Source: a virus (taxonomy: Duplodnaviria > Caudoviricetes). Taken from it: a stretch of 64,000 bases of DNA. The stretch lies in IMG/VR virus record IMGVR_UViG_3300044506_000032, positions 9,814-73,813 of that record, one strand, 5' to 3'. Positions 3,220 through 38,686 of the stretch are shown in pieces. A program made the position numbers and the translations under genes. The notes under the pieces are model-generated. The model did no database searches, was not told the origin of the DNA, and saw only the letters and a list, made by a program, of their open reading frames with translations. Positions within the stretch are counted from its first letter, which is position 1. Each line of letters begins with the position of its first letter.

Positions 3220-3540
3220 ATGTCCACCATCGTCACGACCGTGCCGTACAGCGAGAAGCAGATGCTGATGCTCGACCTGCCGAACGGCGCCCCGGACGTG
3301 CACTCGGGGAGTGACGTCCTCGTCCCGAACCGGGTCACGATCGCTTACGCGCAGCACGAGTCGTTCGCGGTGCCCCAGTCGGTCGAGGTGACCGTCAAGG
3401 GGCTGCTGCGGAACCTGGACGGGACCGTGAGCAGCCGCGCCAACACCGTCGAGGTGTGGCGGTACGTCGAGCCGGCCGAGCGTGCGGCGTGGGTGGCTCA
3501 GTTGGTGGCGGAGAACCTGCCGGCGTGGTGGACCGCATGA
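3220..3540 (+). CDS. Hypothetical protein
   Basis: AGGAGA RBS then ATG; ATGA overlap with the next gene. Confidence 0.65.
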   Translation: MSTIVTTVPYSEKQMLMLDLPNGAPDVHSGSDVLVPNRVTIAYAQHESFAVPQSVEVTVKGLLRNLDGTVSSRANTVEVWRYVEPAERAAWVAQLVAENLPAWWTA

Positions 3541-3716
3541 GTCTCTCGCCACGCGCCATCGCCGAGCCGTCCGCCTGCGGCCGCTGCGGCATCCCCGAGC
3601 GCGAGCACTGGCTGCAGGCCACGGCAACCGACGTCCACGCGTACGAGCCGCCTACGACCGCCCAGATCAAGGACCGCATGCAGGCGCGCCGCGCCACCAC
3701 CACCGAGACCGTCTGA
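3537..3716 (+). CDS. Small Cys/His protein
   Basis: CGRCG..EH..H..PT..QIKDRM pattern; ATGA overlap. Confidence 0.6.
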   Translation: MSLSPRAIAEPSACGRCGIPEREHWLQATATDVHAYEPPTTAQIKDRMQARRATTTETV

Positions 3717-8548: not shown

Positions 8549-8798
8549 CATCGAGCCGGTGCGGCCGATGGGCACGGATGCGTACGGGAAGCAGGTCCGC
8601 GACCAACTCCGTGACGCTCAGGCTCAGCTGGCCGCTGTCCGGGCGCTCCACCAGCCGGTTGACGGTCTCGGCTTCCGCGACGGCGAGTACACGACCGGCA
8701 CCGCCTGTTCCAGCTGCGGGACGTCGGACGAGTTCGCGGTGTGGTGGCCGTGCTCGACTGTCCGTGTTCTCGAAGCTGGCGACGGCGGCTCGTCGTGA
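8532..8798 (+). CDS. Small Zn-binding phage protein
   Basis: AVRALHQP..CSSCG..WPCSTVRVL. Confidence 0.6.
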   Translation: MTRPRDIEPVRPMGTDAYGKQVRDQLRDAQAQLAAVRALHQPVDGLGFRDGEYTTGTACSSCGTSDEFAVWWPCSTVRVLEAGDGGSS

Positions 8799-8986
8799 GC
8801 GCGGGCCTGGTGTGCATCCTCTGCGAGGCCGGCGAGCACATGCTGAAGCCGCGGGATCATCCGCGGTGGGATGGTGAGGAGTCGACCGGTCGGATGTGGG
8901 CGCCGGAGGATCGCTGCGCGTGCTTGTGTGCGCAGGAGCCGGTACGCAAGCTGATCGTGACTCTGGACCTGCCGCCGATGCCGTAG
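8795..8986 (+). CDS. Small Cys-rich protein
   Basis: GTGA overlap; CxxC..H and CxCxC. Confidence 0.5.
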   Translation: MSAGLVCILCEAGEHMLKPRDHPRWDGEESTGRMWAPEDRCACLCAQEPVRKLIVTLDLPPMP

Positions 8987-28470: not shown

Positions 28471-29037
28471 ATGCCAGTGAGTGACCGGTTCCTGATCTCG
28501 TACGAGTCGCGGCACTTCGTGGATACCGACTGGACGCAGCGAGCCGACCGGTGGATGGCCTCGTTCTACACCCAGACGGACACGTCGATCTTCGGGACGG
28601 CTGCGATCACCCGAGTCGTGCCCGGCATCACGCCGAATCCGCGGGTCGCGCTTGAGACGGACCCGGGTCTACTGGACCGCATCCCCCGCGTGATCTTCAC
28701 CGAGGGCGGCGAAATGGTCCCGGCGGTCGCCGATATGCACCCCACCCTGCTGCTCCTCCTCGAATCCGTCGAGGTGAATGAGAAGTGGCGCGGCAAGGGC
28801 GTAGGCATGAGCCTCGCGATCACCGCGCTGCGCCACCTGGCCACAGGGCCCGGTGCTGTCGCCGTTTGCTACCCGGCGCCGATCCACGACCACGGCCCCG
28901 ACGAGCCGTGCTCGTACGACTCGGACGACCCGGAAGTGCGCCGGCCGGACGAGGAGGCGATGGCCAAGCTCCGGGCGGCGTGGGAGCGGCACGGGTTCAA
29001 GCCGATCGGCGAAGGCATCTACGCCATGGCCCTGTAG
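28471..29037 (+). CDS. GNAT-fold acetyltransferase-like protein
   Basis: AAGGAG RBS; LESVEVNEKWRGKGVG (motif A); LRAAWERHGF. Confidence 0.7.
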   Translation: MPVSDRFLISYESRHFVDTDWTQRADRWMASFYTQTDTSIFGTAAITRVVPGITPNPRVALETDPGLLDRIPRVIFTEGGEMVPAVADMHPTLLLLLESVEVNEKWRGKGVGMSLAITALRHLATGPGAVAVCYPAPIHDHGPDEPCSYDSDDPEVRRPDEEAMAKLRAAWERHGFKPIGEGIYAMAL

Positions 29038-29097
29038 CGGGCAGGGCATGAGAAAGCGCCCGCCGCGGCGAACGTGGCGGGCGCCATGGGCCAGCTG

Positions 29098-29595
29098 TTA
29101 GTAGTCGCTCGGGACAGCGACGAAGAGGTTGTGGACGCGGCGTGGGCCGAGGCGGCGCTTCCCCGCCTTCTTGAACGCGCCCTCCTGGACTAGCCGCGCG
29201 CTGTATACGACGGCGGTCCCGTAAGGGATGCCGAGCTGCTCCTCCAGGTCGCGACAGCTGAAGGGCTGATCACCGAAGTGCTCACAGGCGAGAGGGTGGA
29301 GATTCATGGAAGGGAAGCGATCGCCTTGATAGGGCGTCGAGTTGTAGACGACGTTGTGTTCGGGATGCTCCGCAATGATGCTCTCCCGTTCTGCTTCGGC
29401 AGCCTCCTTGCGAGATGAGTACCAGGTCACCTCGTAGGTAGCAACGTTCGGCCACCAAGCCTTGTCGGCGTGGGAGTACCAGCGCTTGGCTGGCTCATCG
29501 CAGATCCCGATGTAGAGCAGTTCGCCGCGCTCGTTGAGGAAGCGATAGAGGGCAACCTCACCCGGGTTCGTCCGATTGATCATTTGGCCCCGCAT
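29098..29595 (-). CDS. GIY-YIG nuclease family protein with C-terminal wHTH
   Basis: VALYRFLNERGELLYIGI..RW..H..WW..AERESI..EHPEHN; start at 29595 or 29583. Confidence 0.8.
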   Translation of the reverse strand: MRGQMINRTNPGEVALYRFLNERGELLYIGICDEPAKRWYSHADKAWWPNVATYEVTWYSSRKEAAEAERESIIAEHPEHNVVYNSTPYQGDRFPSMNLHPLACEHFGDQPFSCRDLEEQLGIPYGTAVVYSARLVQEGAFKKAGKRRLGPRRVHNLFVAVPSDY

Positions 29596-29902
29596 GGCCC
29601 GCAGTCTCACCTGTCTGACCCTCGCCCTTCTTTGGTCGCTTCGAGCCACGGAGCCCCTTCGAGATCTGCTGGGCGCGGGTGAAGTGGATCCCCAGTGCGT
29701 CGCCGATCTCCTGCCAGGTCTTCCCTTGGTTCCTCATGCGAAGGACGCGCTGCTGGCGAATCTCTCGCAGGCGTGCGTGGCTCTCGGGCCAGTTCTGGAG
29801 GACGTCGGTGATCGCCTTGGCGCATGCGGCGTCGTCGTCGATCTCTTCCAGGGCCTTGATGGCGTCCACGAACCTCAGTACCTCCTCTGGCTGATCTGTC
29901 AC
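29558..29902 (-). CDS. Small HTH repressor-like protein (switch C)
   Basis: KTWQEIGDALGIHFTRAQQISKG; paralogue of 16340-16639. Confidence 0.8.
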   Translation of the reverse strand: MTDQPEEVLRFVDAIKALEEIDDDAACAKAITDVLQNWPESHARLREIRQQRVLRMRNQGKTWQEIGDALGIHFTRAQQISKGLRGSKRPKKGEGQTGETAGHAGPNDQSDEPG

Positions 29903-29944
29903 TTCGCGCTCTCCTTTCTCGGACAGGAGAGCGCCACAGCCAGA

Positions 29945-29991
29945 ATGTTAGACCCCCGCTCTTGCTTTCACCTAGACCCCGGGTCTAACTT
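29945..29991. promoter_or_regulatory. Divergent promoters with TAGACCC operators (switch C)
   Basis: TTAGACCCCC (29948-57), TAGACCC-C-GGGTCTA (29973-87); TTGCTT-N18-TAACTT. Confidence 0.7.
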
Positions 29992-30107
29992 GTTCCTTGT
30001 GAGGCCGAACTCCTTGGTCTCCATAGCAACATGCCCCGGCCGGCGCGCCAACGCCGAGACCGGGGCCAGTCCCACCCTCACGCCGCTAAGCCGAGGAGAG
30101 CAGGACC

Positions 30108-30323
30108 ATGCAGAAGAGTACCCAGAACACCCCCTCCGGCGGCAGCCCCGCGCCCGCCGCGAGCAGCGCCGATGCGCTCGCCAACGCCCAGGCCCGCGCC
30201 AACGACATCGCCAACCAGTTCGTCAACGCCTCCCACGCGACCCACGCCGAGCGGGCCGCCATGGTCCAGGACCTCAAGGCCGCCGCCGCCGAGCTCGACC
30301 GTCTCGAACGCGGCGGCGCGTGA
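30108..30323 (+). CDS. Hypothetical protein
   Basis: GAGGAG RBS; first gene of the rightward operon. Confidence 0.65.
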   Translation: MQKSTQNTPSGGSPAPAASSADALANAQARANDIANQFVNASHATHAERAAMVQDLKAAAAELDRLERGGA

Positions 30324-30556
30324 TGTTGATCGCCGCCTTGTTCGTCTGGCTGGTGATGATCCCGCTCGCCGCGTACCAGGTCGTACTGAACCGGCGCCTG
30401 AAGCGGCTGGCCGCCGAGCGTGTCGCTGACGCCGCAGGCCTGCCGCCCGAAAGCAGCTCCGAGCCCCGATTCGGTCACCTGCTTCCCGGCGCAGCACACG
30501 GCAAGCTGCCGGCCCGCTCCGACGTCCGCTACGCCACCTTCAAGGAGGAGCAGTGA
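30323..30556 (+). CDS. Single-TM membrane protein
   Basis: TGATG overlap; MLIAALFVWLVMIPLAAY. Confidence 0.55.
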   Translation: MLIAALFVWLVMIPLAAYQVVLNRRLKRLAAERVADAAGLPPESSSEPRFGHLLPGAAHGKLPARSDVRYATFKEEQ

Positions 30557-30735
30557 CCCCCGCGACCCGCATGGCCTACACCCTGACCGCCGGCAACCAG
30601 CAGTACACCGGCACCACCACCGTCTACGGGGCCGTCGAGATCAGCGAGACCGTTGCCGCGATCGCCCAGCACCACCACGTCCCCACCGCCGACGCGCAGC
30701 TGACCCTCACCCCGAAGCAGGAGGTGCAGCGATGA
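30553..30735 (+). CDS. Hypothetical protein
   Basis: AGGAGGAG RBS; coupled. Confidence 0.6.
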   Translation: MTPATRMAYTLTAGNQQYTGTTTVYGAVEISETVAAIAQHHHVPTADAQLTLTPKQEVQR

Positions 30736-30872
30736 ACCTCAACGACATGCCCTTCACCGAGGCCGACCTCGACCGGGTGCAGGACCTCACCAACGCCTTC
30801 CACTACGCCCAGCAGGACATCGCGAAGGGCTCCGACGACATCGTCTACCAGCTCACCGGCCAGCAGCTGTGA
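30732..30872 (+). CDS. Hypothetical protein
   Basis: GGAGG RBS; coupled. Confidence 0.55.
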   Translation: MNLNDMPFTEADLDRVQDLTNAFHYAQQDIAKGSDDIVYQLTGQQL

Positions 30873-31066
30873 GCACCATCGCCGAGCACGACGCGGACCT
30901 CAAGGTCATGCGCGGCTCGCTCACCCCCGAGAGCCCGATCAACCGGGACGACGACCTGGCCGTCGCGCTCGAGCTCTACCGCCTCTACGGAGGCGACCCC
31001 ACCACCGAAAGGAGCAACGCCACGTGCAGGAGCAGCAGCACACCACCGGCCCTCGCAGCGAGGTAG
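30869..31066 (+). CDS. Hypothetical protein
   Basis: GTGA overlap. Confidence 0.45.
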   Translation: MSTIAEHDADLKVMRGSLTPESPINRDDDLAVALELYRLYGGDPTTERSNATCRSSSTPPALAAR

Positions 31067-31170
31067 ACCCCCGCGAGTTCGCCCAGGCCATCGGCCGGCT
31101 CTTCGGAGACGCCCCAGCCCCGCCGAAAGAGCCCGGCTGGAAGCTCTGCCCGGAAGACGACGACGACTGA
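31024..31170 (+). CDS. Hypothetical protein (48 aa)
   Basis: AAAGGAG RBS, GTG; TGATG overlap with the next gene. Confidence 0.5.
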   Translation: MQEQQHTTGPRSEVDPREFAQAIGRLFGDAPAPPKEPGWKLCPEDDDD

Positions 31171-31433
31171 TGGTGGCGCAAGCAGCCAACTGGTGGGAGC
31201 GCCCCGACGACGACATCCGCACCCAAGGCGGCGGACGGGTCACGGCCTACGTGACCGTCACGATCAACGCCTTCTTCCACTGCACCGGCTGCGACGAAAC
31301 CGTCCAGGTCACCACGCACACCGAAGCCGACCCGACTCACCTGCAGAACGAGATCCTCGCCAGCCTCACCGGCGCCAATTTCCACGCCGACGCCCACGCC
31401 AAGACCTGCACCAAGACACCGGAGACCACGTGA
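31170..31433 (+). CDS. Small Zn-binding protein
   Basis: FHCTGC..AHAKTC. Confidence 0.6.
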   Translation: MVAQAANWWERPDDDIRTQGGGRVTAYVTVTINAFFHCTGCDETVQVTTHTEADPTHLQNEILASLTGANFHADAHAKTCTKTPETT

Positions 31434-31634
31434 CCGAGCAACCCGACCCCGACCCCGACGACCAGGAGGCCCACCGTCTGCTCACCGAGCAGGCCAGCAG
31501 CAGCGAACACACCGTCTACGTCCCCGACCCCACCTGAGGAACCCCAGCGCGTCCCCGGCAGCAGGCCGGCACGGGCCCACGACCCAGACGCGCACCAGTA
31601 CCGCCAACACCAACCCAGCCCGAAAGGCCAAGCC

Positions 31635-32603
31635 GTGACCGAGCCCGACGCCACCACTGACCGCGCCCACTGGGCATGGCGACCAGTCGTCACCGCCGTG
31701 CTCGCCCTGGTCGCCTGGTCCGTCTCCACCTACCTCCACAACTACGTCCACGTCCCCTGGATCCTCGCCATCCTCGGCGCCGCGATCTTCGACCTCTCCG
31801 CCCTCATCCTCGCCGACCTCGCCCACCGCGCCACCAACAGCGGCGACACCGCGGCAGCCCTCATCTACGGCACCGGTGTCGCCCTGTTCACCGCGGCCTC
31901 CGCCGTCGTCAACTGGCTCCACGCCCAGGTCGCCGGCTGGGGCGTCGCCGGCGGAATCCTCTTCGCCGGAGCCCCGATCGCAGCCGAGATCCTCTTCGTT
32001 GCCCAGCACTGGTTCCAGCACCGCCGCAAGCTCCGCCGCGACGGCAAGCTCGGCGACGCCCTGCCGCGCCTCGGCCTCCTGTCATGGTCGTTCTTCCCGA
32101 ACCGGTCCAGGAAGGTCATCAAGGCCGTCATCGAGTCCCGGCTCGACACGATCGAGACCGTTGCTGTCCGGCACGCGGAACTTGCCCGGGCAGCCGGGCA
32201 AGACGCCCCGGGCATGCCCGGGCAGGTGCCCGGGCAACAGGGCGAGCTGCCCGGCGCCCGCCCGGACAACGCCCTGCCGCCCCAGACGCTCCGCCTCGAA
32301 ATCGCCACCACGCCCTCCAGCGCCCACCCGGTGGTCGGGCAACTCGTGCCCGCTCGGGTACCGCGCCCGGCCGTCGTGCCCGAGCCCGTCCTCACCGCCC
32401 AGGCACCGGACGGGCAGGAGACCTCGCAGCCGGATCTGAGCATCGCGCAGGCCGTCCGGATTGCCATCGAGGAGATCGGCACGGACGTCGACGCCGTCAC
32501 CGCCCGGGCAGCCGAGCTCAAGCCCGAATCCGACCGGGCAAACGTCCGCCGCGAAGCCCGCCGTCAGACCGGCAAGCTCCCCGGCACCGGCCTCTACATG
32601 TGA
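31635..32603 (+). CDS. SpdA/DUF2637-like spread membrane protein
   Basis: Four TM helices (AAIFDL..ASAVVNWLHA..GAPIAAE), Pro-rich linker, C-terminal HTH-like helices. Confidence 0.65.
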   Translation: MTEPDATTDRAHWAWRPVVTAVLALVAWSVSTYLHNYVHVPWILAILGAAIFDLSALILADLAHRATNSGDTAAALIYGTGVALFTAASAVVNWLHAQVAGWGVAGGILFAGAPIAAEILFVAQHWFQHRRKLRRDGKLGDALPRLGLLSWSFFPNRSRKVIKAVIESRLDTIETVAVRHAELARAAGQDAPGMPGQVPGQQGELPGARPDNALPPQTLRLEIATTPSSAHPVVGQLVPARVPRPAVVPEPVLTAQAPDGQETSQPDLSIAQAVRIAIEEIGTDVDAVTARAAELKPESDRANVRREARRQTGKLPGTGLYM

Positions 32604-33797
32604 CCCCGGGAAGGACCCCAACGCCATGCCGAACCACGTCCAGCCGCCCCGCTACAGCCTCACCGCCGACACCGTGGAAGCCAGCCTCAACGCCCTCCAC
32701 GCGGCCCAGCAGCTCATCGAAGGACACCTCGCAGCCGTCGCCCCCGGCTCCCCCCGCACGCAGTTCAAGGCCGCCAAGAGCGCTCCCATGGTCCTGCGGA
32801 TCGATCTCGACCTCGGGCCACTTCTCGACCGGACCAACGGCACCATCGATGGCCTCACGCCGAGGCCCGAGCCGGCCAAAGACGAGGGACTGCCCACCAC
32901 CGAGGGCACCCCCAGCTACCTCTGAGTCCCACTCACGCGCTGGCGTCGTCGTCGACGTCGACGAGTCCCCTCCCACCCCCCCCTGACGTGCCGTTACCCC
33001 CCTCCAGAGCCGGGCGACGACAACGACGACTACGACTACGACGAGAAGGAGAGCCCCGGTGCCTGACACCGAAGCGCCCGCAGCGCCGCTGCCCACGGCC
33101 CCGGCCGAGTACCTCCCCGAGCCCGACGAATCCGTGTACGTCACCGCCCCGCCGGCCCCCGAGGAGCCGCAGCCGATCGACTGGACCGCGCCCTCGCCGA
33201 TCGCGGAAGCGGCCCTGAACGACGACCCCCGCGAGCCGCGGTCCGCCCGCACCCGCGGCGTGCCGGCAGCCCCCGCCATGGTGGCCGCCGCCAACGGCAT
33301 GGCCCTGGCGGCCACGACCGCCTACGAGGTCGGCGGGCTGATGGCCCTTGCCTCCACCGCGACCGTGCTCCTGGGCGGTACCGGGGCCCTGGTGGGCCGT
33401 CGCCGCTCCACCGTCCGCAACCGCAAGGCCGCGGCCGCCGGCGCCGCGAAGACCCTCGGGGCGACCAACCGCGCGGCGAATGCCCGCACGGGCGCCGGGC
33501 GCTCCGGGGCCGGGGCGGGCAACGTCTCGGGCGGCGGCCGGGCAGGGGGCGGCCGCGGCCGGGACACGGCCGGGCACACCCGCGGCGGCCACAGCGCAGC
33601 AGGGCACCGTGCGGGCGGTCTCGACAGCCGCCCGTCCGGTGCCCGGGCAGAATCCGGTGGCCCGGGCACGGGCGGGCGCCGGGCGGCGGGCAACGGGCTG
33701 CCCGGCGCCAGCGCAGCCCCGATGCCGGGCGGGCGTGCGGGCGTGCCCGGGCAGGGCGCCCGGGCAACCGGCGGCCGCCAGGCTGCCGCCCCGGGCA
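32185..33797 (+). repeat. Clustered CCCGGGCA octamers (candidate TraB recognition sequence/clt)
   Basis: 10 exact copies: 32185, 32207, 32217, 32229, 32503, 33642, 33661, 33746, 33759, 33790. Confidence 0.55.
32626..32925 (+). CDS. Hypothetical protein
   Basis: GGAAGG RBS. Confidence 0.55.
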   Translation: MPNHVQPPRYSLTADTVEASLNALHAAQQLIEGHLAAVAPGSPRTQFKAAKSAPMVLRIDLDLGPLLDRTNGTIDGLTPRPEPAKDEGLPTTEGTPSYL

Positions 33798-34747
33798 AGG
33801 GCGGCATGCTCGCCCGGATCGCCGACCGGCTCGCCGGCGGCACCGGCAAGAGCGGACCGAAGAAGAAGAGCGACGGGCCGAAGAACAAGCCCGACGGTCC
33901 GAAGAAGACCGACCGCGCGAAGAAGAACGACAAGCCGAAGAGCACCGACCAGACCGACCCGTCCTCCCCGGCCGACCAGACGCCGGCGAGCCGCACCCGC
34001 CGGTCCGCCGCGGCCGCCGCACGACTCGCCAAACGAGCCGCAGCCCGAACCGGACGGCTTGGCGCCGAAGGGCTGCGCCGCAGCAAGCCCTACCGCGACA
34101 AGGCCGCCGCAACTGTCCGCCGTGCCGCAGCGAAAACCGGCGGCGCCGGCTGGGACGCCACCGCGGCCCTGACCCGAGGCGTCCTGGCCGCCCTGCGACA
34201 CCGCGACCTGCGCACCGGTTGGGAGCGGCTGCGCGAAGTGTGGCGCCGACGCCGCCAGGACCGTGCCACCCGCGCCGCCCGCAAGAACGCCGCCAAGACC
34301 CAAGACACCGCGGCGCCCACCGTCGCCGACACCGTCCGCCGACCCTCCACCGCCATGACCGCCCGCACCACGACCGCAGCAGGAGCCTCCATGTCCGGGC
34401 ACCACTTCCTCGCCTCCGCCACCGAGATGGCCCGCGCCGCCTCCGCCTACGACCCCACCGGGATGCTCCAGGTCGGCCAGGACTTCGCCGGCCTGCAGGA
34501 GTCCCTCGAACTGGTCGCCCAGTCCATGAAGATCAGCACCGACAAGGCCGACGCGAAGCAGCCGCTCGACCCCCGCATCATCGAGATGATGCGCGGCATC
34601 TACCAGCTGCAGATGAAGGCCGCCCAGCTCGCCTCCGAACTGCCCGCCGCCTTCGAGCAGCTCCACCAGGTCGACCTCCAGCGCCTGCGCAACCCCCGCA
34701 AGGGCGCCGCCGGCGAGCGCATGTGGGACGTCAGCACCAACCTCTGA
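33059..34747 (+). CDS. TraA-like transfer accessory protein
   Basis: TM pair, Gly/Arg/Lys-rich linker, C-terminal helical domain (GMLQVGQDFAGL..LRNPRKG..WDV) recalled from pJV1/pSN22-type TraA; directly upstream of TraB. Confidence 0.55.
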   Translation: MPDTEAPAAPLPTAPAEYLPEPDESVYVTAPPAPEEPQPIDWTAPSPIAEAALNDDPREPRSARTRGVPAAPAMVAAANGMALAATTAYEVGGLMALASTATVLLGGTGALVGRRRSTVRNRKAAAAGAAKTLGATNRAANARTGAGRSGAGAGNVSGGGRAGGGRGRDTAGHTRGGHSAAGHRAGGLDSRPSGARAESGGPGTGGRRAAGNGLPGASAAPMPGGRAGVPGQGARATGGRQAAAPGKGGMLARIADRLAGGTGKSGPKKKSDGPKNKPDGPKKTDRAKKNDKPKSTDQTDPSSPADQTPASRTRRSAAAAARLAKRAAARTGRLGAEGLRRSKPYRDKAAATVRRAAAKTGGAGWDATAALTRGVLAALRHRDLRTGWERLREVWRRRRQDRATRAARKNAAKTQDTAAPTVADTVRRPSTAMTARTTTAAGASMSGHHFLASATEMARAASAYDPTGMLQVGQDFAGLQESLELVAQSMKISTDKADAKQPLDPRIIEMMRGIYQLQMKAAQLASELPAAFEQLHQVDLQRLRNPRKGAAGERMWDVSTNL

Positions 34748-34797
34748 CCCACCACCAGCCCACCACCCGACACCCACAGACAAGGAACACACCCGTC

Positions 34798-36951
34798 ATG
34801 AAGGTCGACTGGGACGCCGGACACGGTCCGCTCACCGGCCCCCTCAACACCGCCGGAGCAGCCCTCGCCGCCTCCTGGGCCGGACACGCCGCCCACATGC
34901 CCCCCGCATGGGCAGCCGTCGGAGCCGGCACCGGACTGATCGGCCACCACATCGCCGGCATCCGCCACCACGTCACCCGCGCGAGCCTGGCCCTGCGCGC
35001 CGCCACCTGGATCGGCGCAGGCGCCTGGTGCTCCTGGGCGCTGGCCACCACCCCCTGGTCCGCAAACAGCCTGGGCGCACTCGGCGCCGGAACCGCCGGC
35101 CTCGGCATGGCCTGGATCGGCGAGACCCGCGCGGGCCGCCGCGCCGACCAGAAGGCCGCCGAGGCCCTCGCTGCCGAACGCCGACTGGCCGCCAACGAGA
35201 GGACCAACAAGCTCGCCGCCGAATGGCAGGCCCGCTTCGCCCGCGTCTGCCACATCGACGACGTGCGCATCGTCGCCATTGAGCACTGGCCCACCGGCAG
35301 CGGCTACACCCTCGAGTGCGAGCCGCCCGCCGGCGGCACCACGTGGCGTCAGATCGCCGCCGACAGCGAACGCCTGGCCGCCGACGCCAAACTCCCCGAA
35401 GGCTGCGGCGTCCAGGTCGGCCCCGGCGCCCACCGCGGCGCGTTCCTCGTCGAGGTCACCACCGTCAACCACCTCATCGAGGACGTCGACTACCCCGAGG
35501 ACTACAGCCCGCTCAGTATCAACGAGCCGGTCCCCGTCGGCGTCTACCCGGACGGCACGACCGCCGAGCTCGACCTGCGTGAGGCCACCACCCTGCGCGT
35601 CGGCCAGCGCGGAAGCGGTAAGACGAACGAGATGAACGTCGGCATCGCCGCGGGCGTGCGCATGGTCGACAACCTCGACTGGGTCATCGACCTCAATGGC
35701 GGCGGCCTCGCCCTTGCCTGGCTCCACGCCTGGCAGAAGGCCGGGCGCCCCGGCCGGCCCCCGATCGACTGGGTCGCCGACACCCCCGAGAAGGCCCTGC
35801 TCATGTCCGAGTCCGCCGTCGCCATCGCCAAGGCACGCAAGACCGGATACAAGCACCTCGAGATCGAGGCCAACGACGACAAGACCCCCCTGAGCGCCAC
35901 CCTGCCCGGCATCCGGATCCGCTGCGATGAGATCGCCGAGCTGTTCAGCCCCAAGGCGCAGCGCGACCCGCTCCTGCGCCAGGTCGCCGCGAACCTCGTC
36001 CAGCTGGTCGAGATCGCGCGCGCCGCCGGCCTCAACGGCGACCTCGCCGGCCTGCGCGCCACCCAGGACGTCCTCAGCGAGCCCCAGCTCCTCAAGCAGT
36101 CCTTCATCCGCATCGGCCTGCGCGTCACCGACCAGGCCGAACTTGCCTACCTGTTCGGTTGGGAGGACAAGGCCACCCCCGAGGACGCCCCTTACCCGGG
36201 CTCCGGCCTCCTCAAGGTCGGCTCCGCGCCGGCGCGCCCGTTCAAGGTCTACCGGCTCAAGCCCGCCCAGATCGGCGACATCGTCGCCGCGTGCAGCGAC
36301 TTCCAGCCCGAACTCGACGACCTGTCCCGCCAGGCGGCCGGCGACGCCTACACCGACCGCTGGGAAGGAACCGACCACCTCTTCGGCCTCGCCGCCACCC
36401 CGGCCCCCGCCGCACCCGCGGCCGCCACCACCTCCGACAGCAGCGGCGAGACCCGCCGGTCCGTCACCTCCGACTGGGACAGCCCGACACCGGCACCGAA
36501 CATCGACACCACCGTCAACGACGCCATCAACGACACCGACCAGCTCCTCGGCAAGATCCACCAGGCCATGGACGAAGCCTCCAGCCAGGACGACGAGCTG
36601 AACCGGAAGTTCCTCGAGGTCCTCGGCGAAGGTGGCGCCCTGTGGAAGCCCCCCGCCGACACCGCGCCCCAGCCCGCCCCACAGCCCAACGACGACCCCA
36701 CACCCACCCCCGGCATCGCAGACGACGCCCGCTGGCCGACCGTGTTCAGCATCGTCGCCAAAGCCGGACCCGGCGGCATCGGCCCGGAAGCCATCCGGGA
36801 AGCCTTCACCACCCTGCAGCCGGACGTGCCACCCCCGTCCCGCGCGGCCATCACCGACTGGCTCAAGGCCGAACCCCAGGTCTACAAGCCCATGCGCGGC
36901 ACGTACGCCCACATCAAACACCGCACCGACACCCCCGGAGAGCAGCCATGA
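34798..36951 (+). CDS. traB: TraB FtsK/SpoIIIE-like conjugative DNA translocase
   Basis: N-terminal TM segments, Walker A GQRGSGKT (35602-25), Walker B IRIRCDE, ARAAG..LRATQ, C-terminal winged-helix-like domain. Confidence 0.8.
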   Translation: MKVDWDAGHGPLTGPLNTAGAALAASWAGHAAHMPPAWAAVGAGTGLIGHHIAGIRHHVTRASLALRAATWIGAGAWCSWALATTPWSANSLGALGAGTAGLGMAWIGETRAGRRADQKAAEALAAERRLAANERTNKLAAEWQARFARVCHIDDVRIVAIEHWPTGSGYTLECEPPAGGTTWRQIAADSERLAADAKLPEGCGVQVGPGAHRGAFLVEVTTVNHLIEDVDYPEDYSPLSINEPVPVGVYPDGTTAELDLREATTLRVGQRGSGKTNEMNVGIAAGVRMVDNLDWVIDLNGGGLALAWLHAWQKAGRPGRPPIDWVADTPEKALLMSESAVAIAKARKTGYKHLEIEANDDKTPLSATLPGIRIRCDEIAELFSPKAQRDPLLRQVAANLVQLVEIARAAGLNGDLAGLRATQDVLSEPQLLKQSFIRIGLRVTDQAELAYLFGWEDKATPEDAPYPGSGLLKVGSAPARPFKVYRLKPAQIGDIVAACSDFQPELDDLSRQAAGDAYTDRWEGTDHLFGLAATPAPAAPAAATTSDSSGETRRSVTSDWDSPTPAPNIDTTVNDAINDTDQLLGKIHQAMDEASSQDDELNRKFLEVLGEGGALWKPPADTAPQPAPQPNDDPTPTPGIADDARWPTVFSIVAKAGPGGIGPEAIREAFTTLQPDVPPPSRAAITDWLKAEPQVYKPMRGTYAHIKHRTDTPGEQP

Positions 36952-37457
36952 CCACCACCAACCTCATCCCCCAGCAGTCCGCACACCAGGAAGCCTTTGC
37001 CACCACCGACGACATCCAGGCCGGCCGGGTCACCGGCGTCGGCTACGCCGTGTCCGTGGAGAGCGGAAAGCCGATCCCCGTGTACGTCTCCGACACCCCG
37101 CCGCCCCAGCCCGCGCCCACCCCACCGACCGTGCCGGCCCCCCAGCCTCAGCAGGTCATCGTCCAGCAACAGCCCCGCGACCCGTGGCCGGCTCGCATCC
37201 TCGCCTCCGGTGGAACCATCGCGGGAGTCGCCGCCACCGTGGGCCACTTCGCGACCGAACTCGGCCAGGCCGCCCACGCAGGGGAGGCGATCGGGATCGG
37301 CGTCGGCGCGGCAGCAGCCGGCCTGTGGCTCCTGAAGGGCAGCAGCCCCAGGGTCAGCGTCACGATCAACAACAGCAACACCGGGGCCAGCTCGTCGTCC
37401 AGTTCCACCAGCAGCTCCAGTTCGGCGTCCGGCTGGAGGTCCCACTCGTCCAACTGA
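36948..37457 (+). CDS. Spd-like two-TM spread protein
   Basis: ATGA-coupled to traB; Pro-rich region, two hydrophobic helices, Ser-rich tail. Confidence 0.55.
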   Translation: MTTTNLIPQQSAHQEAFATTDDIQAGRVTGVGYAVSVESGKPIPVYVSDTPPPQPAPTPPTVPAPQPQQVIVQQQPRDPWPARILASGGTIAGVAATVGHFATELGQAAHAGEAIGIGVGAAAAGLWLLKGSSPRVSVTINNSNTGASSSSSSTSSSSSASGWRSHSSN

Positions 37458-37586
37458 CCGACCTGGTCGGCTGAACGACCATCACGCAGCGGCGCGGTGC
37501 CCCACACTCGACTCCTCGCACCGGGGGACTTGTGGCGGCACCGCGCCGTCGTGTCGCGCCCCCACCTACAGCCCGGCTCCACCAAG

Positions 37587-38015
37587 ATGAGCCGCATGGT
37601 CAAGCCACGCCTCACCGTCGACGAGCACGCGGAGCTCGGACGCACCCTCGCCGGAATCCGGGACGAACTCCAGCACCGAGCCGTCCAACTGGAAAACGCC
37701 TACCCCCGGTCCGGGATCGAAGCCCAGCCGGCGCGCAAGCTGACCGAGATCTACAAGGCCATCGACAAGGTCCGCGACCTGCTGGAGAACGCCCTCTACC
37801 GGGAACACCCCGAGGTGGCCACCACCCACATCTACAACCCGCAGCGCCAGGACCGGGCCATCGTCACCATCCCAGCCACCAGCAGCGAACCCGACTGCCC
37901 TGCCGCCGGCTGGACCGCCATCGGCACCACGCCGCTCCGCCTCATCTGCAACAACGAGCCGCACGACGGCGAGCAGCACCACGACATCGTCCACGGCGAC
38001 TGGAGAAGCCCGTGA
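37587..38015 (+). CDS. Hypothetical protein
   Basis: GC3 bias; GTGA overlap with the next gene. Confidence 0.6.
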   Translation: MSRMVKPRLTVDEHAELGRTLAGIRDELQHRAVQLENAYPRSGIEAQPARKLTEIYKAIDKVRDLLENALYREHPEVATTHIYNPQRQDRAIVTIPATSSEPDCPAAGWTAIGTTPLRLICNNEPHDGEQHHDIVHGDWRSP

Positions 38016-38686
38016 CCATCCGCGTCGGCGGCATGACCGTCCCCCTCGAAACCGCGGCCCGATGGACGGCCGCCTACTTCGACGAGGAAGCCAACCTCAC
38101 CTCGAAGAGCCCCTACGCCTACCCGTTCTACGACCGCTACGACGGCGGAGCCGAACAGGATGGCCTCAACGGAGGCGACTTCCTCGCGCCCGTCCTGCTG
38201 AACGCCAACCCGAAACTGGTCGGCTACCGCACCCTTCTCAAGCTCAAGGCTCACTTGGTGCAGGGCCTCGCAGCCATACCGCTCGACCTCACCCTCCAGA
38301 CCGCCGTCGAGGCCGACATCCACCGCGAGCTCCTCGCCTGCCTGGTACAGCCGATCGACCCGCACGGCGCGCCCGGCATCAAGCTGACCATGCTCGCAAA
38401 GGTGCTGCACCGAAAGCGCCCGCTGTTCTTCCCGGTGTACGACTCCTACGTCCGCGCGTGCTACGTCGGCCGAGCCAAGCGTTTCCCGATGCGCAACCAG
38501 ACTGGCCGACTGGACTCGGTGTTCATCGGCGAGATCGCCACCTACATGGTCGCCGACCTGGCCAGCCAGCCCGAGCCGTGGAAGCAGCTCGCCGCGATCG
38601 CGCCGGCCGGAGTGTCTCCGCTGCGCCTGCTGGACGTCGTCGCCTGGAACGCCGGACGGAAGATCGCACCTCAAGTTGACGAATAG
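38012..38686 (+). CDS. DUF6308-like protein
   Basis: YAYPFYD, KVLHRKRPLFFPVYD, SPLRLLDVVAW. Confidence 0.65.
   Translation: MTIRVGGMTVPLETAARWTAAYFDEEANLTSKSPYAYPFYDRYDGGAEQDGLNGGDFLAPVLLNANPKLVGYRTLLKLKAHLVQGLAAIPLDLTLQTAVEADIHRELLACLVQPIDPHGAPGIKLTMLAKVLHRKRPLFFPVYDSYVRACYVGRAKRFPMRNQTGRLDSVFIGEIATYMVADLASQPEPWKQLAAIAPAGVSPLRLLDVVAWNAGRKIAPQVDE

Follow-up and report, generated by a model that had tools for sequence, protein, structure and literature searches.

A candidate clt-like repeat array within coding sequence upstream of the TraB/FtsK-like translocase gene of a tailed phage

We describe here a phage genome in which ten exact copies of the 8-mer CCCGGGCA are packed into 1.6 kb of coding sequence upstream of a gene for a TraB/FtsK-like translocase, and we find that these repeats are under selection at the DNA level. 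Our leading explanation, about which we are slightly more doubtful than confident, is that the copies form a protein-binding array on double-stranded DNA and act as an element-specific, clt-like cis site of a translocation module made up of gpA, gpC and TraB. Arrays of this type are known from plasmids; here the host is a phage, the array lies in the coding sequences of upstream genes and its word tracks a domain of gpA. The element is a tailed phage (Caudoviricetes), as its record carries genes for a portal (phrog_533, 4e-100), a major head protein (phrog_267, 3e-63) and a tape-measure protein (phrog_4197, 5e-100); the record is graded 99% complete. It is probably a soil phage of the Streptomyces type that bears a plasmid-style DNA-transfer module. 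All coordinates refer to the window, the stretch of 64,000 nucleotides that was analysed.

The exact copies start on the plus strand at 32185, 32207, 32217, 32229, 32503, 33642, 33661, 33746, 33759 and 33790, which is where the preliminary description had placed them. The first four, together with one GCCGGGCA (32193), make up cluster 1 (32183..32236, plus strand) in the codons of a disordered linker of gpA, and three of the copies in this cluster are the palindrome TGCCCGGGCA. An isolated pair (32503..32540, plus strand), consisting of the exact copy at 32503-32510 and the one-mismatch ACCGGGCA at 32533-32540, lies inside the codons of the gpA C-terminal domain. Cluster 2 (33537..33797, plus strand) combines the last five exact copies with two of GCCGGGCA (33537 and 33569) in the codons of a Gly/Arg-rich linker of gpC, where the copies at 33642 and 33661 fall within an extended inverted repeat. 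With ten exact and five near copies, the array is situated 1.0-2.6 kb upstream of traB. Half of the ten exact copies have the form of the 10-bp palindrome TGCCCGGGCA, which explains the five minus-strand matches to CCCGGGCA within the array region, and all five such decamers of the genome are found there. Ten of the 12 plus-strand copies in the 73,813-bp record fall into these 1.6 kb (binomial P ~7e-14, window-corrected), and the 2 copies outside compare with about 4 expected under a Markov model. The clustering also held on a genome-wide scale, since a ranking of all 8-mers of the record puts CCCGGGCA first. GACCCGGA, presumably the pSVH1-type word, is not enriched. An iteron-like array, AACCCACG repeated eight times, sits elsewhere in the genome and is separate from the CCCGGGCA array.

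The signal resides in the DNA and not in the peptide, because the ten copies far exceed what synonymous codon choice would produce. In controls that kept the protein sequences fixed while synonymous codons were shuffled or resampled, 0.5-0.75 copies were expected per gene, and the 5 copies seen in each were reached in 0 of 5000 trials. When gpA and gpC were shuffled jointly, 1.3 copies were expected against 10 seen, with a maximum of 7 in 2000 shuffles, and the 7-mer core CCGGGCA occurs 15 times where 2.6 would be expected. Uncommon codons are used in the copies: GCA accounts for 10% of Ala codons, GGG for 15% of Gly codons and CAA for 4% of Gln codons. Those in gpA occupy frames 1, 2, 0, 0 and 1 and encode A-R-A, P-G-M, P-G-Q, P-G-Q and A-R-A; those in gpC occupy frames 1, 2, 0, 1 and 2. 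The earlier suggestion that all three frames are used in the first gene, and that this reflects selection on DNA, is therefore borne out. In-frame duplication is excluded as the source of the copies, since the copies occupy all three frames in each of the two genes and have different flanks. In a ~96% identical phage from another soil metagenome the copy at 32207 carries two substitutions, and therefore single copies are dispensable. Among the listed sequencing runs that contain this stretch of DNA, none is recorded as RNA.

Repeats of this kind might in principle have no protein reader at all and arise as a by-product of low-complexity Pro/Gly/Arg/Ala coding, of slippage or of gene conversion between palindromes, or they might work as mRNA hairpins or DNA cruciforms. 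The arrays do sit in disordered linkers of biased composition, and several relatives have most of their copies in a single frame, where they yield peptide repeats (EGAP in locus L043, Lys/Pro/Glu-rich low-complexity sequence in L015). The peptide PGMPG(H/Q)VPGQ is kept among gpA homologues, and strong RNA or single-stranded DNA hairpins are predicted at the palindromic copies, with z scores of -3.3 for cluster 1 and -4.2 for 33630-33680. Short-range triplets of CCCGGGCA in other viral contigs (72 loci, none with a TraB relative) are moreover nearly all spaced in multiples of 3 in collagen-like genes. However, the spacings in the window (22, 10, 12, 274, 19, 85, 13 and 31) are irregular and not multiples of 3, one word is used in two different genes 1.4 kb apart, and synonymous shuffling never attains the observed count. 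A third tested stretch had no fold excess (z -0.45). We consider it improbable that the array lacks a protein reader. The conserved peptide is an indirect sign that relatives with the same gpA C-terminal domain may keep CCCGGGCA; when metagenome and viral contigs were searched for proteins closely related to gpA, none turned up.

The hexamer CCCGGG is the SmaI/XmaI site, and short repeats occur in clusters at some pac sites, for example that of phage P1. The array could be envisaged as a pac-like packaging site or as related to restriction sites, the more so as the region holds 11 of the 50 CCCGGG sites of the genome and the words of several relatives contain 6-bp palindromes (GGCGCC, CCGCGG, TCCGGA). 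Yet CCCGGG by itself is not in excess (10 versus a synonymous expectation of 5.4), only the extended word is, and elsewhere the hexamer is mildly depleted (39 versus 52-58 expected). The portal gene is also ~10 kb downstream of the array, which goes with traB and not with the packaging genes. Contigs aligned to the region do not end in it, although contigs are uninformative about DNA ends. We regard this explanation as highly improbable.

The module comprises three genes, for the four-helix membrane protein gpA, for gpC and for the TraB/FtsK-like pump. The product of the gpA gene (31635..32603, plus strand) is 322 aa long; four membrane helices at its N-terminus are followed by a linker rich in Pro, Gly and Ala and by a C-terminal domain of ~60 aa (32418..32600, plus strand; ~aa 262-322), which is our best candidate reader of the array. 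GC3 frame analysis backs the reading frame of gpA, which matches phrog_10376 (2e-29), and its N-terminal domain is 38% identical to the homologue in locus L046 (7e-32). gpA itself has no match in Pfam, the DUF2637 (PF10935) model included; a protein 52% identical to it (P0122) has a precomputed PF10935 assignment, the protein at the gpA position in L043 scores 5e-40 with DUF2637, and the equivalents in plasmids L121-L123 are annotated as DUF2637. For the C-terminal domain we obtained no family, fold, usable ESM Atlas or meaningful PDB sequence match. Weak matches to HTH_IclR/TetR_N came only from the GGTTC-class homologue of this domain, and a predicted complex of two copies of the domain scored 0.36, below threshold. 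Between the two array-bearing genes lies gpB (32626..32925, plus strand; 99 aa), which has no family match; a small gene is found at the equivalent position in plasmid NZ_CP108596.1. In gpC (33059..34747, plus strand; 562 aa), two membrane helices are accompanied by the Gly/Arg-rich linker, by a stretch rich in Lys and, at the C-terminus, by a conserved helical domain (34448-34741, plus strand; aa 464-561) that is always encoded immediately upstream of TraB. This domain adjoins FtsK/TraB genes on their upstream side in plasmids of Streptomyces as well as in the phages Hiyaa, Keanu, Galactica and Spocter.

The product of the third gene (34798..36951, plus strand; 717 aa) is identified by its sequence and predicted structure as a true TraB/FtsK-like translocase of double-stranded DNA, in which helices at the N-terminus and a coiled coil are combined with an FtsK-type motor and, at the C-terminus, a winged helix. 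It matches phrog_31069 (2e-91), its Walker A motif GxRGSGKTN and DEIAE are conserved in the family alignment (A1), and the model matches the FtsK motor, TcpA and EccC (E 1e-12, target TM 0.55-0.72). The Pfam model FtsK_SpoIIIE (PF01580) gave no match to it, and searches of Pfam and NCBIfam with gpA, gpB, gpC and TraB returned nothing. The N-terminal helices (10-31, 37-56 and 61-84) are modelled with pLDDT ~60 and are hydrophobic in sequence. The winged helix (36715..36927, plus strand; aa 640-710), the rival candidate reader, is built of three helices and a hairpin with pLDDT ~90; its best PDB matches are weak (E 0.06-0.3, TM 0.5-0.67) and all of them are winged-helix DNA-binding domains. The module is a homologue of the transfer modules of plasmids, and the same gene order occurs in Streptomyces plasmids and in the plasmid-phage pZL12. 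No homology test gave support to the names spdA and traA that were used at first for genes of this region.

Arrays of this kind recur in related loci. In 24 of the 30 loci with full flanks, for each of which ~18 kb were scanned, the top clustered 8-mer is centred no more than 2.8 kb upstream of traB, where 16% would be expected; the nominal P of 9e-15 overstates the significance because the loci are related. The word itself varies from element to element. Like CCCGGGCA, many of the words of relatives exceed synonymous expectation; for example, TGGCGACA occurs 6 times versus 0.5, TGGTTCGC 6 versus 0.2, CGTAGCGG 7-8 versus 1, CCGTGGCG 13 versus 1.7 and CGGGGCGG 12 versus 1.3. The words of relatives are found in both orientations in similar numbers, and therefore an mRNA motif is unlikely and recognition as double-stranded DNA is favoured. 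No clear array was seen in the distant modules of pZL12, Hiyaa and plasmids L122 and L123. A CCCGGGC cluster seemingly common to loci L002 and L015 turned out to be noise. These comparisons suggest that the array is part of the transfer module and a real clt-like cis site.

The TraB protein of pSVH1 reads 8-bp repeats via helix alpha3 of its winged helix, as described in PMC4447253 and in PMC3583192, the latter citing Vogelmann 2011. The preliminary description had proposed CCCGGGCA as a candidate TraB recognition sequence (TRS); the array would then be a clt read directly by the winged helix of the phage TraB. The protein architecture of N-terminal helices, FtsK-type motor and C-terminal winged helix fits this idea, arrays of 7-9-bp words beside tra genes are the known form of clt, and the array is 1-2.6 kb away from traB. 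Furthermore, words of classes I-III have a GCGCC(A/C)CG-like core in common that could fit a shared helix. The proposal held in one half, in that a clt-like array does lie upstream of a real TraB and has equivalents in relatives; in the other half it did not, as the word fails to track the winged helix. The identical recognition helix HAATIGRWL occurs in 15 loci with three word classes among them. The helix SR(A/S)AITDWLK(A/K)EP is common to the window and to loci L002, L015 and L041, which use the words CCCGGGCA, TGGCGACA, AAGCCGAA and GGTTCGG, and no word common to this whole helix class was found. The winged helix of the window shares 73% of its residues with its counterpart in L002 and 64% with the one in L015, with recognition helices one residue apart, and despite this near identity the words of both loci are unlike CCCGGGCA. 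The presence of the relatives' words in both orientations is also unlike the direct repeats of clt.

The word goes instead with the C-terminal domain of gpA. Domains with SRQYANKLR are paired with GTGGCGCC, those with SRRHAQKLR with GGGCGCCCCG, those with SRAQAGKIR with CGTAGCGG, and those with TTAYNRL or TTAYDRL with GGTTCCG or GCTTCGG; the window and L002 each have a gpA C-terminal domain of their own and a word of their own. Window and L002 amount to a natural swap, in which the winged helices (at their 73% identity) and the gpC C-termini are alike while gpA and the word differ. The Mantel correlation with word class is highest for the gpA C-terminal domain (r 0.67), followed by the gpC C-terminus (0.52), the TraB winged helix (0.36, a positive value that speaks for TraB), the motor (0.29) and the gpA N-terminal domain (0.12). 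In a regression on word class over 25 loci, the betas were 0.72 for the gpA C-terminal domain, 0.20 for the gpC C-terminus, -0.05 for the winged helix, 0.04 for the motor and -0.03 for the gpA N-terminal domain. The association with the gpA C-terminal domain persists for arrays in gpC only (betas 0.60, 0.28 and -0.12), and the winged helix thus contributes about nothing or less. The alignment of the window's gpA C-terminal domain to the better-defined classes is only loose, at 16-22% identity, and L002, in spite of its different gpA C-terminal domain, has TGGCGCCA palindromes similar to the class I word. The covariation could also stem from linkage, with cassettes of linker plus domain being swapped together, because part of each array sits a few hundred bases from the codons of this domain. 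On these data the gpA C-terminal domain, whose DNA binding we infer, appears to be the better candidate reader, and direct reading by the TraB winged helix seems unlikely, although it deserves to be kept in mind.

The word might also be bound by a module protein that has no role in transfer, either at an sps-like stability or positioning site or at an autoregulatory operator array of a gpA-gpC-traB operon. SpdA2 of pIJ101 binds a palindrome, sps, inside its own gene and provides a precedent for a Spd protein, and loss of that system affected stability but left transfer and pock formation unaffected (PMC4170104). Of the CCCGGGCA copies, half are palindromic. Neither ParB nor an integrase was found on the record, and therefore an extrachromosomal state would need another positioning system. 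As for an operator, unregulated plasmid traB is toxic, as the Kil-Kor systems illustrate (PMC4447253). As in the SpdA/SpdA2-sps case, where the spread-gene product binds a short palindrome repeated 2-3 times in its own coding sequence (PMC4170104), the reader proposed here, a candidate, is encoded by a gene that carries the array. However, sps is a conserved 12-mer, CGTCACGTGACG, common to many plasmids, whereas the word described here is element-specific and its 10-15 copies extend over two genes. Allowing for up to 2 mismatches, CGTCACGTGACG has 2 matches in the window, which is below chance, and none in the module. SpdA proteins are described as small and soluble (117-163 aa), with a conserved N-terminal region for DNA binding, and are set apart from gpA, with its 322 aa, four membrane helices and DUF2637 relatives; the initial assignment of gpA as SpdA is not upheld. 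An operator would not usually consist of two clusters distributed across 1.6 kb of coding DNA, a scan of 29000-38500 gave no promoter-like site, and the genome possesses the separate iteron-like array. A binding site without a transfer role thus strikes us as quite unlikely.

We return to the clt-like site of a translocation module and its nearest known counterparts. The TraB-clt systems of the Streptomyces plasmids pSVH1, pIJ101, pJV1 and pWTY27 likewise combine an FtsK-like translocase bearing a C-terminal winged helix (PMC4447253, PMC3583192) with an array of an element-specific 7-9 bp word near the tra gene on the same replicon and with Spd-type membrane proteins alongside. TraB and SpdB2 are known to interact (PMC4447253). 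In contrast to these systems, the host here is a tailed phage, the array is upstream of traB within the coding sequence of two other genes, the words of relatives come in both orientations, and word class tracks the C-terminal domain of the upstream membrane protein and not the TraB winged helix. The phage TraB is 35-39% identical to plasmid TraB proteins and has no score with Pfam FtsK_SpoIIIE. pZL12 (phage ZL12; pZL12.71c-73c) is also a tailed-phage genome with the order membrane protein, large protein, FtsK/TraB-like protein, and PMC3583192 states that its transfer requires a major tra gene as well as two neighbouring genes. It differs in that TraB identity is only 27%, no clear word array lies upstream of pZL12.71c, and pZL12 has ParAB (PMC4487206), which this record does not. 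The cultured tailed phages Hiyaa, Keanu, Galactica and Spocter encode a homologous translocase (36-39% identity); just upstream of it lies a homologue of the gpC C-terminal domain, and further upstream a membrane protein is encoded. Their gene order differs from that described here, with one gene inverted, and Hiyaa has no convincing array. In the FtsK-KOPS and SpoIIIE-SRS systems, an 8-bp word is read by the winged helix of a hexameric pump for double-stranded DNA. KOPS and SRS are polar and distributed chromosome-wide, whereas the words here form a local array. TraB shares kinship with FtsK and SpoIIIE (PMC4447253). The gamma domain (PF09397) is an extra C-terminal domain of some relatives only and is absent from the TraB of this phage.

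How the module might work can be outlined as follows. Copies of the word would have been placed, contrary to codon preference, in the disordered-linker codons of two membrane-protein genes that precede the phage-borne traB. The C-terminal domain of gpA would read the word, with a dimer possibly binding at the palindromic copies, and gpA might in this way tether the phage genome to the membrane, close to the hexamer of TraB and to gpC, its conserved partner. TraB could then drive the genome, as double-stranded DNA, through a septal cross-wall or into an adjacent hypha, and the genome would spread through the mycelium in the manner of a conjugative plasmid. In its full form this proposal describes a phage with a complete conjugation-type transfer system for double-stranded DNA and a cis site of its own, which moves its genome between compartments of the Streptomyces mycelium without virions. 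The site would be read by the C-terminal domain of a membrane-anchored DUF2637-type adaptor and not by the translocase, giving a two-component clt recognition in which the sites in linker codons co-evolve with the adaptor. We consider the full proposal possible, but would not expect all of it to hold.

Several cultured Streptomyces phages, and pZL12 too, have genes annotated as FtsK/TraB-like translocases. With a defined cis array, two candidate readers and natural variants of the word, the question of what these translocases act on becomes directly testable. The array is also a clear case in which coding sequence carries, in all three frames, an additional layer of regulatory or structural DNA information. 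If the adaptor model were true, the specificity of Streptomyces-type conjugation would reside in a Spd-type membrane protein and not in TraB, and a phage would be able to spread through the mycelium like a plasmid.

Ten plus-strand copies of the word CCCGGGCA lie within 1.6 kb (32185, 32207, 32217, 32229, 32503, 33642, 33661, 33746, 33759 and 33790), at the same positions as in the preliminary description. This region holds 10 of the 12 plus-strand copies in the 73,813-bp IMG/VR virus record, of which the window covers bases 9814-73813 (window-corrected binomial P ~7e-14), and the genome-wide enrichment check proposed earlier bears the cluster out, with CCCGGGCA ranking first among the 8-mers of the genome for clustering. 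Minus-strand matches in the region are explained by five copies that form the 10-bp palindrome TGCCCGGGCA, and all five TGCCCGGGCA decamers of the genome fall inside the array region. Five extra sites with one mismatch (32193, 32533, 33537, 33569 and 34394) keep the core CCGGGCA.

GC3 frame analysis delimits four co-oriented genes here, gpA (31635-32603), gpB (32626-32925), gpC (33059-34747) and the translocase gene traB (34798-36951), with one cluster of copies in gpA (32183-32236) and the other in gpC (33537-33797). The earlier argument that the use of all three reading frames reflects selection on the DNA holds for both genes, as the five copies in gpA are in frames 1, 2, 0, 0 and 1 and those in gpC in frames 1, 2, 0, 1 and 2, with irregular spacing that is not in multiples of three. 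When synonymous codons were shuffled or resampled with the protein fixed, 0.5-0.75 copies per gene were expected, whereas each gene has 5, a count reached in 0 of 5000 trials; for both genes together the expectation was 1.3, with at most 7 in 2000 shuffles, and 10 copies are present. For the 7-mer core CCGGGCA it was 2.6 against 15. The copies are moreover made up of the rare codons GCA, GGG and CAA. Because of this synonymous excess and rare codon use we conclude that the array is real and that CCCGGGCA is selected in the DNA. A restriction-site effect is an unlikely explanation, since CCCGGG alone shows no excess over the synonymous expectation (10 vs 5.4), and a pac site is also unlikely, since the array is tied to traB and not to packaging genes. 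The linkers that bear the array are compositionally biased, Pro/Gly/Ala-rich in gpA and Gly/Arg-rich in gpC; they are presumably disordered, and in these stretches almost any sequence is tolerated by the protein.

Three gpA homologues were found in the protein collection, and the peptide PGMPG(H/Q)VPGQ, which encodes CCCGGGCA copies, is kept in them even at 52% identity. An independent soil metagenome from a different study contains a ~96% identical phage (~600x contig depth over 31600-36950). Two of its differences in the gpA cluster, at 32208 and 32213, fall inside copy 32207, and a third, at 32225, lies just after copy 32217 and leaves it intact; the other copies of this cluster are unchanged among the differences listed. 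The alteration of copy 32207 suggests that single copies are dispensable, while the array as a whole appears to persist. In the same phage gpC carries small in-frame indels, for example 21 bases missing at 33857.

Among 45 related loci, 30 have full flanks, and in 24 of these the most clustered 8-mer of the ~18-kb locus is centred no more than 2.8 kb upstream of traB, where a fraction of 16% is expected (nominal P 9e-15, a value inflated by the kinship of the loci). The words are element-specific. Three classes were distinguished, class I with GTGGCGCC/CCGTGGCG, class II with CGTAGCGG and class III with CGGGGCGG/GGGCGCCCC, and the further words are GGTTCCGG/CAGGTTCC, TGGCGACA, CGGATCTC, TGACGCGG and AAGCCGAA. 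Most of these words exceed the synonymous expectation several-fold. In some loci the copies lie mostly in one frame and are visible as peptide repeats (EGAP in L043), in others, as in the window, they occupy all frames. In the relatives the words occur about equally often in both orientations, which points to recognition on double-stranded DNA and not in mRNA. A structural element in RNA or DNA is possible for the window, where palindromic copies form strong predicted hairpins (z -3.3 at 32170-32250 and -4.2 at 33630-33680), but at 33735-33805 the z is only -0.45, and a structural role leaves the non-palindromic words of the relatives unexplained. No clear array was found in the more distant modules of pZL12, Hiyaa and the plasmids L122 and L123. 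L122 (S. longwoodensis plasmid NZ_CP107738.1) has six CGAGGCGA copies at 3432-3547, in the 115 bp that separate a DUF2637 gene from the large gene preceding FtsK, possibly an intergenic counterpart of the array.

The 717-aa translocase matches phrog_31069 ('FtsK/SpoIIIE-like', 2e-91), and over 260 proteins of ~700 aa from Streptomyces genomes, plasmids and viral contigs are related to it. Identity is 48% with a protein encoded on the circular plasmid NZ_CP108596.1, 35-39% with Streptomyces plasmid proteins named 'DNA translocase FtsK', 36-39% with FtsK-like translocases of the phages Hiyaa, Keanu, Galactica and Spocter, and 27% with pZL12.71c of the plasmid-phage pZL12. Its AlphaFold model comprises N-terminal helices, a coiled coil and a motor matching the FtsK motor, TcpA and EccC (E 1e-12), followed by a confidently modelled C-terminal domain of three helices and a hairpin, for which the best PDB matches are all winged-helix DNA-binding domains, but weak. 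The modelled architecture is that of TraB. In some relatives (loci L014, L017, L018/L020, L044 and L046; proteins P0091, P0103 and P0117) the winged helix of the family is followed by an additional FtsK gamma domain (PF09397), which gives these proteins two candidate DNA-reading domains.

The element is a tailed phage: the window has genes for portal, major head and tape-measure proteins and for a DnaB-like helicase. Neither a recombinase of the tyrosine or serine type nor a ParB was found in the whole record, and several HTH regulators are present; the phage may be lytic or an extrachromosomal prophage. The 73.8-kb record may fall short of the full genome, because a near-identical gpA (P0121) sits on an 84.5-kb contig. 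Some 950-1160 bases ahead of the window, at record 8656-8862 (L119), an iteron-like array holds all eight AACCCACG copies of the genome as direct repeats in ~200 bp, interleaved with AAACTCACG-like words; it may be an origin of replication or else a repressor or partition site. At 37532-38686, immediately after the transfer module, lies the gene of a DUF6308 protein (3e-37).

The labels spdA for gpA and traA for gpC found no support. SpdA proteins have 117-163 aa and are accompanied by the palindrome CGTCACGTGACG (PMC4170104), of which the window has no copy. The N-terminus of gpA consists of four membrane helices and is 38% identical to the same-position protein in the related locus L046; the gpA relative P0122 and same-position proteins in L043 and plasmids belong to DUF2637. 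The last ~100 aa of gpC (34448-34741) form a conserved domain whose coding sequence, in Streptomyces plasmids and the phages Hiyaa, Keanu, Galactica and Spocter, always immediately precedes that of TraB/FtsK. This domain, 'hypothetical' in every annotation, is likely an obligate TraB partner.

TraB reads the 8-bp repeats of clt via helix alpha3 of its winged helix (PMC4447253; PMC3583192), and the array had been proposed as a TraB recognition sequence. Of this proposal the clt-like array of a transfer module stands, whereas the coupling of word and winged helix, the feature probed as defining TraB-TRS systems, was not seen in covariation. Fifteen loci with words of classes I, II and III have one and the same recognition helix, HAATIGRWL, and SR(A/S)AITDWLK(A/K)EP is common to the window, L002, L015 and L041, which have four different words; no word common to this helix class was found. 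What the word class does track is the C-terminal domain, ~65 aa long, of the gpA-type protein. Between classes I and III both the domains and the words are alike, and class II combines a related domain with a word one or two bases different. L002 has a domain and a word of its own, and so does the window. TTAY(N/D)RL domains pair with G(G/C)TTC(C/G)G words despite N-terminal membrane domains of different types.

Across 25 loci, the similarity of word-enrichment profiles was compared with that of protein parts by Mantel test and regression. The gpA C-terminal domain gave r 0.67 and beta 0.72, the gpC C-terminus 0.52 and 0.20, the TraB winged helix 0.36 and -0.05, the TraB motor 0.29 and 0.04, and the gpA N-terminal domain 0.12 and -0.03. 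With arrays inside gpC only, the ranking of beta was unchanged (0.60, 0.28, -0.12). The gpA N-terminal domain, encoded just upstream of the linker, has no predictive value for the word, which argues against plain linkage; swapping of cassettes of linker plus C-terminal domain is a possible source of the covariation. The gpA C-terminal domain is small, basic and helical by pattern. Searches of PDB and the ESM Atlas gave no match, and only the GGTTC-class domain yields weak HTH_IclR/TetR_N matches. From its covariation with the word we infer that it binds DNA, and the best-supported candidate reader would be this domain of the upstream membrane protein. Judged by the comparison of loci, the array itself is conserved as a feature and specific to each element; it belongs to a putative Streptomyces-type dsDNA transfer module on a tailed phage and would work like a clt.
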